From: Microcoleus sp.
GTDB taxonomy: Bacteria > Cyanobacteriota > Cyanobacteriia > Cyanobacteriales > Microcoleaceae
Length of the DNA: 64,000 bases
NCBI GenBank assembly: GCA_042408215.1
Contig: JAYFMW010000017.1
Location: forward strand, 256,001 to 320,000
Reading direction: 5' to 3'
The notes under the pieces are model-generated. The model made no database searches, was not told the DNA's origin, and saw only the letters and a program-made list of their open reading frames with translations. Each line of letters begins with the position of its first letter. Position 1 is the stretch's first letter. Shown one piece after another: positions 1,534 to 13,350 of the stretch. The position numbers and the translations under genes were made by a program.

Positions 1534-1971
1534 AAAAAAGTTCGGTATGTGGGAAACTCAGTGGCTTGAGCTTAGAGAGGGAAACGACACGAGTGGTTTT
1601 AACCACCGTGAATCTTTTTTGTCCATTACCGCCTTGGGATTACTTGATTCGGTGTACTTTTGTAATGTACTTTCAGTGGGACAATTACCATTTCAAATTT
1701 CGCAATCCTGTACGCATAATGGTTTGCTCTTTTATAGCCTCCCTTGCGGGGTAATGTTCGCTTCGACCTGGTTATAAAGGCTTGTGAGACCTGCAACACT
1801 GTTTCAGTGACTTTAAAACTGTTTAATTGCAGATGACAGAGCTCTTAACTAGCGTCGCATTCAGAGGTGTCGTGACCTAAATAACGTTTACCTATTACTA
1901 GGTGGTCTGGTCAGTACAGCTTGCTCGATTACTCTTACAAGCTCAGTCCCGGAGCGGGCTGAGTTACTGAC
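1534..1971 (-). mobile_element. Non-autonomous IS200/IS605 (IscB-type) element lacking an intact ORF
   Basis: Diverged homolog of 10821-11192; both follow TCAT and end in TGAC on the + strand; subterminal hairpins at both ends. Confidence 0.85.
1738..1971 (-). ncRNA. HEARO / IscB omegaRNA scaffold, copy 1
   Basis: Minus strand GTCAGTAACTCAGCCC..GGGACTGAGCTTG..TGACCAG..ACGTTA..GACACC..ATGC..CTAGT..GCTCTGTC..TTAAACAG..CAGTG..CGAAGC..CATTACCCCGCAAGGGAG follows HEARO motif order; stems covary with copy 2. Confidence 0.8.
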
Positions 1972-8473: not shown

Positions 8474-8659
8474 TGGTGATTTTTATGGCTTTATTATCGA
8501 TCGTTTATTGTTAGGGGTTTATTCGACCTCTTTCCCAAGTCTATAACAACTTGTTTGCAGTTGCAGACATCAGTCTTTTTTTTTCTAACTATTCTAGGTC
8601 GAGGGTGCTTAGGTTGCACCCTACCTCTGTTCATTTTGTTTGTTTAGCTCGAAATTAAC

Positions 8660-9086
8660 CAATCACCAATTCCCAATTCCTAATTCCCAATTCCCAATTC
8701 CCAATACTTCGGCGTAGTTGCTCCTGAGCCCTTCGGCTACGCTCAGGAGCAACGCAGTCGTTGGGCGGTTCCTGAACCCTTCGACGCAGTTTACCCGCTC
8801 GCGAATTCGAAGGGCTCAGGGGCCACGTAGTCGAAGGGCAGTACAAGTTCCCAATTCCCAATTCCCCATTCCCAATTCCCCATTCCCAATTCCCAATTCC
8901 CAATTCCCAATTCCCCATTCCCCATTCCCAATTCCCAATTCCCAATTCCCAATTCCCCATTCCCAATTCCCAATTCCCAATTCCCCATTCCCCATTCCCA
9001 ATTCCCAAGTCCCAATGCCCAATTCCCAATGCCCAATTCCCAATTCCCAATTCCCAATTCCCAATTCCCAATTCCCAATTCCCAAT
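8660..9086. repeat. STRR heptamer array (CCCAATT/CCCCATT) with an embedded REP-like palindrome cluster at about 8707-8840
   Basis: Dozens of tandem heptamers; embedded CTGAGCCCTTCGGCTACGCTCAGG-type hairpins. Confidence 0.9.
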
Positions 9087-9088
9087 GA

Positions 9089-10531
9089 CTAATTAATCAT
9101 TCCTTCTAAAGCTGATTGTAAGTCTTGAGTGAGTTCGGCAACTGCTAACCTGCGGCTGCTTTGATATCCTTCCCAGCGATCGTCCACTGATATTGGCTCA
9201 CCCACGGTCATTTTTACTTGCTGTTTGCCCAAATTCGGTCGCCCGAAAGGATTTCCCCCTTTGATGCGAGCAAGTACGTCCCACAGCAGTAAAGTTGTTT
9301 CTGCTAGCCGTTCTGCGGTCAGCTTTTCTTGCACATACCTGCCGGTAACGGACACAAAACTTTCTACGAGTCTCATGTGCCACATCCGGAGACTTGCTTC
9401 TTCGGCGAGTCGATCGGCTAATCCTCTTTCTAAGGGACAAAGCGCTGCAATATCTTTGATATCTTCTCGATAAATATAGTCCCAACCTGCTTGTTCCAAA
9501 CGGCGACAGCGGTCTATCAAACTGCCTTTTGGCTTCAAGTTGAAATACTCTTCTGCTACAAGTAGTGCCACGTCTAAAAGTGCTTGCAACCGATCGTTCA
9601 TAACTTGTTCTTTTTCCGAATCTCCTGCTGTTGCCTTGGGGATTTCCACGGGTATCGAAACAGAGATTTTTGGCGGTAATTTTTGATGGTAAAAACGGGT
9701 ATAAAACTGCTCCATTACTTCTAGTAAATGGCTGCCCAATCGAATTAGGCGCATATATTGGAAGTTGTGATTTGGGTCTTGTGAACCTAAAATCTTCCTC
9801 GAAAAATTGGCGTTATTGCTACTATCCAATGGTGGCAATCCGCAATCTGCTTCTAATTGAGTTAAAAGTTGTTTTAGGGGTTCCCAAGGTGGCTGGACAT
9901 AGCGGTATTGAATGCCGATCGGCACAATTAACACTTTTTCATTTCTGTCAGCTTTACGCAGATCTTCAACGCACCAGAAGCCCATTTGAGCAATCCCTGG
10001 TTCGAGGGGGCTCACTATTTCATTGTGACCGTTGGTGGCACCTTCTGGGGCGGCGGCGATCGGGAATTTGCTATTAGCAAATAAATCGCGGGCCGATCGC
10101 AATCCAGCTCGATCGATCTTACCGCGAACGATCGGAGTGCCGCCGAGGTGGGAATACAGCCAGCCGACGCCCGCACCAGCCCAGAGGGGAATGCCGCGAT
10201 CGTAAATAAAGTGCGAATGTACGGGGAATTGCAGGGGAATGCCTTGTTGCCGCGCTGAAGCAGGAACCAGTTTCCAAACCAGTTGTCCCAAACAGTAGGG
10301 ATCCTCTGAGTTGGGGTGGCGGAAGGCTAGCAGGAAGCGAACTTTCTGATTTTGAAATTGGTGAAAGAGTTCGGCGAGGGTTTCGACGTTTTCGGCTTGA
10401 ATGTCGCTGATACTTGTCCGAAATCGCAGCCACCAGGGGAGCAATTGCTGACAGCCAAGCACTACTAGGGGGTTGTAGGCTGGGGGTATGAATTCTAGCG
10501 GCGGCTGAACTTGGCTAATTGAATTGGGCAT
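9089..10531 (-). CDS. Cyanobacterial phospholipid/glycerol acyltransferase (PlsC superfamily)
   Basis: HxxxxD motif (RHPNSED), [13 protein letters not shown]. Confidence 0.85.
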
Positions 10532-10820
10532 TTGCGATTTGAGATTTGCGATTTGAGATTACTCGCCTGCGGTAAAAATTTCTGATTTTTACTTTTTTGC
10601 TATTCTAATAGATACCCGACTTCTTAAAGAAGTCGGGTATCTGGGTATTCTGTTTTTTTAGATGCGCCTCAGCTTATTAACCACAGAGGACACAGAGGAC
10701 GCAGAGGAAAAGAGGAAGAAAGAAGATGGATAATTTTACAGCCTGAAGTCAGCAATTTTTCCCCAATCCTAAATCTCAAATCCCAAATCTCAAATCCTAT
10801 TGTGCGGCTTGAAAAATCAT

Positions 10821-11192
10821 AAAAAAAACTCGGTAAGTGGGAAACTCAGAGGCTTGAGCCTAGAGAGGAAAACAGCTCGGCGGTTTCAACCGCGTTGAAT
10901 CCCCAAAAGGGGTTGGAGGGGTATGGTTGCCCCTCCTTTCGAGGTATGGTTGCCTCGGTCTCCCTTGCGGGGTGATGTTAGCTTCGCCAAGGTTATAAGG
11001 GCTTGCGCCGGCTTGCAGCACTATCTCTGTTACCTTAAGACTGTTTAACCGCAAGCGACAGAGCAAGGGACTAGCTTCGCATCCACAGGGTGTCGTGACC
11101 CAAATAACGTAGTCAATGAAGACGATAGCTGGTCAGCATAACTTGCTCAATTACTCTTACAAGCTCAGTCCCTTTAGGGCTGGGTTGCTGAC
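10821..11192 (-). mobile_element. Non-autonomous IS200/IS605 (IscB-type) element inserted in the 3' end of rnb
   Basis: Homolog of 1534-1971 with the same TCAT|..TGAC junctions; precise removal restores an in-frame rnb C-terminus. Confidence 0.85.
10960..11192 (-). ncRNA. HEARO / IscB omegaRNA scaffold, copy 2
   Basis: Minus strand GTCAGCAACCCAGCCCTAAAGGGACTGAGCTTG..TGACCAG..ACGTTA..GACACC..GGATGC..CTAGTCC..GCTCTGTC..TTAAACAG..CCCCGCAAGGGAG. Confidence 0.8.
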
Positions 11193-13175
11193 TTCTTGGA
11201 AATGAACTGCGTCCGATCGCGGATCGCAGTGCGTGACTTTGACTTCTAGTCGATCGCCTATTTCGATCGATCGACCAAATCGCATGGCTAATTCTAACCC
11301 CAATTCTTCCAACAAAATCAATCCCACATTACTGTCTTCCCGTAGCCAGCGCAGCATTAAAGCCTCCCAGACTTCATCCGGGTTGCGCCGCAAATATTCC
11401 AATCCCCAATAGCGGTTGGTTTGACGTTCAACGCTAGAGGCTTCTCTGACTGCGGTGCCGAGACACATGACTATTTCCTGCATTTCTTCAGCACAAAAAG
11501 GCAACGGTTCGCCTCGCAAGTGAGCTTTGATTTGAAAGTGAGTCAGCAAGTCGGTATAGCGGCGGATCGGAGAAGTAACTTGAGTGTATGCTTCCAAACC
11601 CAAACTCGAGTGCCTTCCGGGGGTCAGACCCATTTCGCTGCGGGGCATACAGCGACGCACGGCGCAAGCCCGGGCTGGCCCGGCGGGCACAGCTAGCAGT
11701 TCTTCTTCGGGAGGAAGTTCTGGCTGGGGCTGATAGCGGTAGGGTATGGGTAGGCTGTGAACCTGACCGTAACGCGCTGCGAGTTCCCCAGCTAAAATCA
11801 TCATTTCGGCTACTAGCAATCGGGCTGTGGAGTCGTCGATGACGTGGATTTTGATGTCGTCGCCGTTGACTTTGATGACGGATTCGGGCATGAAAATGCT
11901 GATGGCGCCTTGGGTTTCTCGCCATTTTTGTCGCAGTTTTGCCAAATCCGCGATCGCACCTATTTCCGGTTCTGCTTCGATTCCCAACTCCAACATCTCG
12001 TCTACATCATCGTAGGTTAAGCGGTAGGTAGGTTTCACCGTGCTGATATGAATGCTGTAATCTTGGAATGCACCAGCTTCATCTAAGATCACACTAAAGC
12101 TGAGAGCGCTGCACTCTTGACCTTGATTTAAGCTCATCGGCCCGGTTGCCAATTCTGGGGGAAACATTGGTATCATCCCCGTGGGCAGGTAAACTGTGGT
12201 GGTGCGCTTTCTGGCTTCGAGGTCGAGTTCGTCTCCGGGGGAGAGTAAGCGAGTCGGATCGGCGATGTGTATCCACAGGCGCTGCTGGCCGTTTTCGAGG
12301 AATTCTAAGCTCAGCCCGTCGTCTATTTCGGTAGTGCTTTCGTCGTCGATCGTGTAAACCTTGAGGTGAGTTAAATCTAGACGACTGGTTTCGGAGTCCC
12401 TTGGGGGATTTTCTAGGCAGCGTTGCGCCACTTCTAATACCTTGGCGGATAGTTGTAGGGGAATTTGGCTACGCCGCAAAAACAGGTTTTCGTGGTGACT
12501 CCACAAGTCGAGATCGACTAAGAGTTGAAAGGCTGCTTCGGGTGTTTCGGGACGTTCTAAGCTGGCTAAAGTTTCTAGGGCTGGGGTGCGGTGTGTTGCT
12601 TCTTCTCCGATGGTCGCAAATCGTTCTAGGGCGTCGAGGCGAGTTCGATCGCTATTTGCCCAATCTACTTTTTCTCCTGCTAGTCGCTGCTTGACTCGAT
12701 CCCAAAATCCTTGGGATTCTTGGTGTCGCTGCTGTTCTACTTCTTGCTGGTGTTTGATTTCGGCTACTTGGGCGACGGAACGCGGTTCGTATCGATCGCC
12801 CTTTTGTTTGAAATACAGTTTATCTGTTGACAGCAAACAATAAGCTGCGTAGCACTGAGCGGAACTTTTCTCGGAAAATAGCAGCACTGCTAAGGATTCC
12901 GGGTCTGCGGTTTCTCCGTCCCCGACTAGCAGTTCCCAAGCTACCTCAAGACTCGAAGGATCTGAGTAAACTTCTACTTCTTTGAGAAATTTTGGAATGT
13001 CGGAGGGTTTGTAGGTTTCTCCGGCTATTTCGTAGGTGATTTGTTTAGGCGGTATGCTGTGCGGTTGACTGTTTTCGTCTACCAACACCCAGTTTTTTTT
13101 GCCGTCGGGGCGATCGGCAACGGCTAGACGGCGGTCGCCGTGCAGTCTAAATTCTACTAAGGTTCCCTTGTCCAC
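11157..13175 (-). CDS. rnb: Ribonuclease II/R family exoribonuclease
   Basis: TIDDESTTEIDDGLS, IHIADP, LVAEMMILA, TSPIRRYTDL; start set at GTG of VDKGTLVEF; last 11 aa come from the inserted element. Confidence 0.92.
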   Translation of the reverse strand: MDKGTLVEFRLHGDRRLAVADRPDGKKNWVLVDENSQPHSIPPKQITYEIAGETYKPSDIPKFLKEVEVYSDPSSLEVAWELLVGDGETADPESLAVLLFSEKSSAQCYAAYCLLSTDKLYFKQKGDRYEPRSVAQVAEIKHQQEVEQQRHQESQGFWDRVKQRLAGEKVDWANSDRTRLDALERFATIGEEATHRTPALETLASLERPETPEAAFQLLVDLDLWSHHENLFLRRSQIPLQLSAKVLEVAQRCLENPPRDSETSRLDLTHLKVYTIDDESTTEIDDGLSLEFLENGQQRLWIHIADPTRLLSPGDELDLEARKRTTTVYLPTGMIPMFPPELATGPMSLNQGQECSALSFSVILDEAGAFQDYSIHISTVKPTYRLTYDDVDEMLELGIEAEPEIGAIADLAKLRQKWRETQGAISIFMPESVIKVNGDDIKIHVIDDSTARLLVAEMMILAGELAARYGQVHSLPIPYRYQPQPELPPEEELLAVPAGPARACAVRRCMPRSEMGLTPGRHSSLGLEAYTQVTSPIRRYTDLLTHFQIKAHLRGEPLPFCAEEMQEIVMCLGTAVREASSVERQTNRYWGLEYLRRNPDEVWEALMLRWLREDSNVGLILLEELGLELAMRFGRSIEIGDRLEVKVTHCDPRSDAVHFQEVSNPALKGLSL

Positions 13176-13350
13176 TTGCCAGTTGTATATTTTATATTTT
13201 AGATTTTTACATTTGCCACTTGTCAAGTTTTGAGTTTGGGATTTTAGATTTTGGAGACTTGTATTTTTTCTGGTTAAATCACGTAAAAACGTTACTTTCG
13301 CCTAGCTTTTATGACCGTCCAAAATCTAAAATCTAAAATCCAAAATCCAG

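Follow-up and report, generated by a model that had tools for sequence, protein, structure and literature searches.

An IscB-type transposon without a protein gene supplies the C-terminus of an RNase II-family gene in Microcoleus, one of ten independent gene-tail captures

We analyzed a 64,000-nucleotide stretch of DNA from Microcoleus sp. (the window) in which the exoribonuclease gene rnb ends inside a transposon. The insertion point lies seven codons ahead of the natural rnb stop, with ATGA at the last Met codon of the gene, and the current C-terminus, read from the frame translation, is DAVHFQE-VSNPALKGLSL-stop. The rnb event is not unique. It belongs to a recurrent class and is one of ten independent tail captures. 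The features are collected in Table 1; G000 denotes the source genome and other G numbers denote its relatives.

Table 1. Features of the rnb locus (window coordinates)
Feature	Position	Strand	Basis
rnb, RNase II/R-family exoribonuclease (probable start GTG at 13175, 672 aa)	ORF 11157..13226	-	open reading frame, domains, model
Element-derived 11 codons and TAA, also first omegaRNA hairpin and transposase right end	11157..11192	-	frame, covariance match, fold
Stranded native tail, MIFQAAQ-stop	10797..10820	-	in silico removal; native in G005
ATGA, first four bases of the stranded tail; target motif and predicted TAM	10817-10820	-	
372-bp gene-less IS200/IS605 element, IscB type, PATE-like, inserted N/ATGA, without target duplication	10821..11192	-	removal test, genus alignment, DNA search
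HEARO/omegaRNA scaffold, model positions 1-211	10972..11192	-	covariance match, 132.7 bits
Transposase left end: after TCAT; GAAA (10841-10844) at hairpin foot (10845-10867)	10821..10867	+	sequence; fold weak, z -1.0
Transposase right end: CAAG (11160-11163), hairpin, terminal TGAC (11189-11192)	11160..11192	+	sequence; fold weak, z -1.3
Predicted guide: last 16-18 nt of retained rnb coding sequence	11193..11210	-	IscB omegaRNA architecture

Domain searches of the rnb product found RNB, CSD, wH and HTH domains, and structure comparison matched its modelled fold to RNase II/R structures, placing it in the RNB family; between RNase II and RNase R, the product reached no NCBIfam equivalog cut-off. 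Deleting 10821-11192 by script produced FQE-MIFQAAQ-stop with the frame kept. The match to the HEARO RNA (Rfam RF02033) begins exactly at the codon following the Glu of FQE. A preliminary description of the locus had proposed that the first omegaRNA hairpin provides the present tail and that MIFQAAQ lies stranded 372 bp on; frame, HEARO match and in silico removal confirm this.

The same insertion is present in G008 (L002). The site is empty in G005 (L003), where the predicted junction is native base for base, so both boundaries of the element are established. The preliminary description had also predicted orthologs with FQEMIFQAAQ-like ends. This was borne out: 22 of the 24 same-genus rnb loci (G000 included; the locus of G012 is only partly assembled) are empty and end in [M/V/L]I[F/L][Q/E][A/P]A[Q/E/P], neither in VSNPALKGLSL nor in unrelated tails. 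When 79 genus genomes were searched at the DNA level, G000 and G008 alone among the matches listed spanned the whole stretch, and the other listed rnb matches end at window position 11193 or at most 4 bases from it; 78 weaker matches lie outside the list. Near-identical contigs cross the junctions in three independent DNA runs, and a 372-base skip was found in none of four DNA runs. We considered an assembly artefact, which is ruled out by the insertion in G008 and by the contigs of the three runs.

Over 1953 bases of rnb, the two filled genomes differ at 72 positions, while G005 differs from them at 49 and 39. The G000 and G008 copies of the element are 9-10 changes apart; the rnb element is thus no fresh jump. 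These copies (window 10821-11192 versus L002) differ in two small patches, the first of which, in G008, matches the intact IscB copy at C8 and suggests conversion between copies. On whether the empty site of G005 arose by excision or by recombination, the informative sites conflict (4/8/6), and the fork joining G000 and G005 is unstarred (92/93) in a tree that used 13 of the 24 same-genus rows, with L024 one codon out of register in the slice. Some 30 bp downstream of the site, the flank in G005 begins to diverge.

The HEARO match (11192-10972) is full length and scores 132.7 bits against a gathering score of 83. The element has a 5'-GTCA terminus and is inserted 5' of ATGA, as checked against the empty site, and the alignment with G005 shows no target-site duplication; these are the marks of the N/ATGA class of ISC elements. 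Among the open reading frames of the window, no iscB was found inside the 372 bp, which makes the element a gene-less derivative of the ISC class. It is short, has both ends, lacks a protein gene and has many related copies, as PATEs do. G000 contains 70 HEARO matches and two intact iscB genes, which share the left end of the rnb element and, by sequence comparison, carry scaffolds similar to its own. A candidate helper, an IS605 element on contig C13, has an intact tnpA, also follows TCAT and also has GAAA ahead of a hairpin; its tnpB is split over two frames. Because the rnb element has no iscB of its own while G000 holds intact iscB and tnpA copies, it is, judged by sequence, a PATE-like, omegaRNA-only derivative and an ordinary member of a known transposon family. 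We take the pairs GAAA/TCAT and CAAG/TGAC to fit the guide/cleavage pairing rule of the IS608 TnpA. The end hairpins fold no better than shuffled sequences (z -1.0 left, -1.3 right).

What does the exchange do to the protein? A structure model of the rnb product built from 115 sequences reached a pLDDT of 96.5 (an earlier model from 30 close sequences gave 52 and was unusable). In this model the junction coincides with the end of the last strand, E656-661, and confidence in the new tail is 69 and then 38. Thirty of the 115 aligned homologs have at most one residue past the junction and 55 have at most three; Val, from the first element codon, is natural at that position in 7 of 22 empty orthologs. 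An Anabaena RNase II with a C-terminal BFP fusion is described as growing like wild type, and the S1-containing region of that enzyme as binding RNase E (PMC7144899); rnb is described as essential in Synechocystis (PMC3293843). Both enzymes are likened to the rnb product by family name. The tail swap is likely harmless because the junction lies just past the last predicted strand. The earlier proposal of a near-neutral insertion is well supported by homolog ends, the Val of orthologs, the structure model and tolerance of the BFP tag in Anabaena. Counting against neutrality are the fair conservation of the native tail among genus members and the RNase E binding seen in Anabaena, and mild harm or drift may be at work, with only 2 carriers among 79 genus genomes.

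We searched other HEARO loci for genes that read into an element. At 69 of the 70 G000 loci (the weakest was omitted), a host gene does so three times: in rnb, in hypD (GIA-IH-stop versus GIA-IASTVN-stop in G008) and in pntA part 2 (KKK-DLLKS-stop versus KKK-EVKA-stop in 24/24 fetched loci). Among relatives we examined 116 of 175 HEARO matches in ten genomes. Sixteen of these loci have a sense frame of at least 80 codons running into the element, and eight are real genes, the shared rnb event included. The other eight frames (L084, L114, L135, L141, L165, L168, L169, L172) had no Pfam match and were dropped; that of L135 may be a real gene. The seven further captures affect a glycosyltransferase-4, hypD of G041 (an independent event), PmbA/TldD, a histidine kinase, a peroxiredoxin, peptide deformylase (def) and ycf54. 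The stranded native tails measure 1 to 8 codons, two of these lengths being taken from the G000 ortholog. Three captures struck ATGA stop/start overlaps; for def and ycf54, G000 holds the empty overlap.

All ten independent captures recognised lie within 8 codons of the native stop. By comparison, 664 of 32,731 in-gene ATGA sites (2.0%) fall in the last ten sense codons in a rough gene set. Across 185 loci, 128 of which had both ends called, we found no copy in mid-gene; antisense spans were judged spurious where the sense gene starts at ATG, and C10 was checked further. Of 27 further close copies, 21 were parsed, and none of the 19 with both ends called has a long upstream frame. Copies of the ATGA type also open reading frames: 35 of 55 in G000 lie at the start codon of an ORF of at least 90 codons, where a purge of coding sites only would predict about 17% and TnpB-type sisters with the same left end reach 2 of 10, although P values of such positional tests overstate, the copies being related by descent. 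Captures at gene ends only, with none mid-gene, argue against splicing and for tolerated, transcribed sites, which would comprise start codons, ATGA stop/start overlaps and last codons. The median distance to the first in-element stop is 5 codons in the ATGA-overlap phase and 11 in the rnb phase (n=161, without a control). This difference may be an effect of the hairpin loop, and we do not claim a built-in early stop.

We consider the following account of the rnb locus probable. A Y1 transposase (TnpA) supplied in trans likely inserted the gene-less IscB-type element 5' of ATGA at the last rnb Met, reading TCAT on the opposite strand, and the tail swap would have been harmless. Exact excision would restore native rnb. 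Read-through from rnb would yield a scaffold transcript headed by the last rnb codons, its 5' guide; that these codons are the putative guide follows the published IscB architecture. IscB from another copy could then cut the emptied allele, recognized by guide and ATGA, which would favour retention.

Reads were available as contigs only, without strand, ends or level, and such contigs are no proof of a transcript. Contig X14 of an RNA library continues without splicing from rnb and reaches 40 bases into the element; X17 covers the far junction with zero differences. No terminator-like site was found on the rnb strand, in a promoter/terminator scan that performed at chance level. The omegaRNA is likely the 3' UTR of rnb mRNA, as had been suggested before; X14 and the lack of a terminator-like site on that strand point this way. 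The preliminary description had also raised removal at the RNA level. An element removed precisely from RNA, IStron-like, would leave the native MIFQAAQ tail still made: 372 is a multiple of 3, excision restores the rnb frame, and a low-depth RNA contig, X16 (window 10656-11400), skips exactly 372 bases. On its rnb side, however, X16 shows 18 differences from G000 over 208 bases, and all 9 variants listed recur in distant empty genomes, while its downstream 165 bases are identical to G000. We read X16 as an empty allele of distant type; joined to a G000-type flank, it may be a recombinant, a chimera or an ancestral site. Exact removal is also the outcome of DNA excision, X14 is unspliced, no group I or II intron family matched in the window (HEARO alone passed gathering thresholds), and mid-gene insertions number 0 of 185 loci whereas IStrons sit inside coding genes. 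RNA-level removal is therefore disfavoured, and we regard it as the most improbable of the readings.

A stronger rival accepts the same insertion but holds it to be a silent passenger: rnb mRNA would yield no mature guide, IscB would load none, and the element would persist by drift and lost excision. Such a view fits the absence of iscB from the element and its presence in only 2 of 79 genomes, as well as the lack of the 372-base skip in all four DNA runs; ribosomes would moreover traverse the first hairpin to reach the UAA, and any guide would have to be excised from an mRNA of 2 kb. We nonetheless find it unlikely, because the scaffold is full length and well over the cut-off, the expected motifs are kept at both ends, the genome has intact iscB genes with similar scaffolds, and the family as a whole is biased toward transcribed sites. 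Much less credible is that the host has co-opted the insertion, a structured 3' UTR or the new tail tuning the level or activity of RNase II. The 36 tail-coding bases are indeed identical in G000 and G008, against 72 differences in 1953 rnb bases, and the region folds better than shuffles (z -2.7). However, the same 36 bases double as transposon end and omegaRNA hairpin, similar captures strike unrelated genes, and the equally close G005 lacks the element.

PMC4810608 already describes the family and its N/ATGA target, and the preprint of Meers et al. its bias toward host transcription. Cyanobacterial ISC elements of the N/ATGA class, such as ISC1-1_MA, are described as starting with GTCA and producing no duplication (PMC4810608). 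With ISC1-1_MA of Microcystis and its partner IS605B-1_MA (Kapitonov et al. 2016, PMC4810608), the rnb element has in common the 5'-GTCA, the position upstream of ATGA, the missing duplication, predicted subterminal hairpins, an end also found in TnpB-type elements and a cyanobacterial host; unlike ISC1-1_MA, it has no iscB. PMC4810608 has 0 occurrences of 'start codon', and its passages on these elements do not discuss position relative to host genes. Meers et al. (10.1101/2023.03.14.532601) describe IscB omegaRNAs as dependent on outside transcription, with an orientation bias to co-oriented upstream genes. Their PATE-like omegaRNA-only elements resemble that of rnb in being gene-less, with both ends, an omegaRNA, a guide outside the element and a need for host transcription. 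At rnb, in contrast, the predicted guide consists of protein-coding sequence, and the scaffold itself contains the host stop; their passages on transcription describe an orientation bias, not capture of gene tails. IStrons are reported to sit inside coding genes (10.1101/2023.11.20.567912). Like the rnb element, they are of IS605 type, lie within a coding gene and leave the frame restored once exactly removed; the rnb element, however, has no group I intron and, among 185 loci, no copies in the middle of intact coding genes, its relatives occur only at gene ends, and it supplies a stop instead of splicing. From the HEARO RNA as reviewed (RF02033, PMC13565253), the rnb scaffold, full length and over the gathering score, differs by having no embedded ORF. 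Literature searches (supplements outside their scope) found no report of start-codon or gene-tail capture by IscB/IS200-IS605 elements.

As a single event the rnb insertion is ordinary, and its value is that of a natural test. Ten independent tail captures and no mid-gene copies indicate where RNA-guided elements survive without splicing, and last codons and ATGA stop/start overlaps join start codons among the sites that are transcribed and tolerate insertion. Relatives with the site filled (G000, G008) or empty (G005) make the locus a ready system for studying IscB guide maturation from host mRNA. For annotation, odd C-termini in these cyanobacteria can derive from transposons. A bolder generalization, which we think doubtful, is that IscB-type elements, confined to gene ends, routinely rewrite termini, and that guide production of the rnb type and RNase expression are mutually exclusive fates of one transcript. 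If so, ribosomes must melt the scaffold to terminate at a stop codon inside the first omegaRNA hairpin, and the cut that frees the mature guide RNA would deprive of its stop the mRNA of an RNase that is probably essential; this would parallel, without an intron, the splice-or-guide conflict of IStrons. Our literature searches found no such translation-versus-guide conflict at tail sites.

Several further observations concern element copies and their neighbours. Within the window, a second gene-less HEARO element of 438 bp (1534-1971, minus strand) has its boundary precisely at the ATG of a gene for a type II/IV secretion ATPase of 445 aa, which we take to be pilT-like. Start-codon copies in G000 presumably include those at fusA, chlB, rplS, rpsP and rpaA, and small genes that we assume to be petL/petM-like, below the length cut, also follow copies. 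Two HEARO copies are nested or in tandem ahead of one ATG (G000:C6:209965-211487). In the pnt operon (L042, G000:C14:55000-60000) there are two elements, one on the pntA start codon; the other is an intact IscB element that lies within the final codons of pntA part 2 and splits the overlap with the next gene. An antisense IscB copy (L228:2678-3943, G000:C6) interrupts a conserved gene of 430 aa without a Pfam family some 13 codons from its start, and an in-frame GTG at the element end may restart that gene. For an IscB subfamily that begins with GCTAT, the insertion sites are GCGATCGC-like (L041:1874-1885 in G000:C5; L105 in G041), presumably the cyanobacterial HIP1 palindrome; this subfamily struck the hypD 3' end independently in two lineages. 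Finally, a multi-copy palindrome lies downstream of rnb (window 10609-10643), and window 8655-9092 holds long 7-bp tandem arrays typical of filamentous cyanobacteria.
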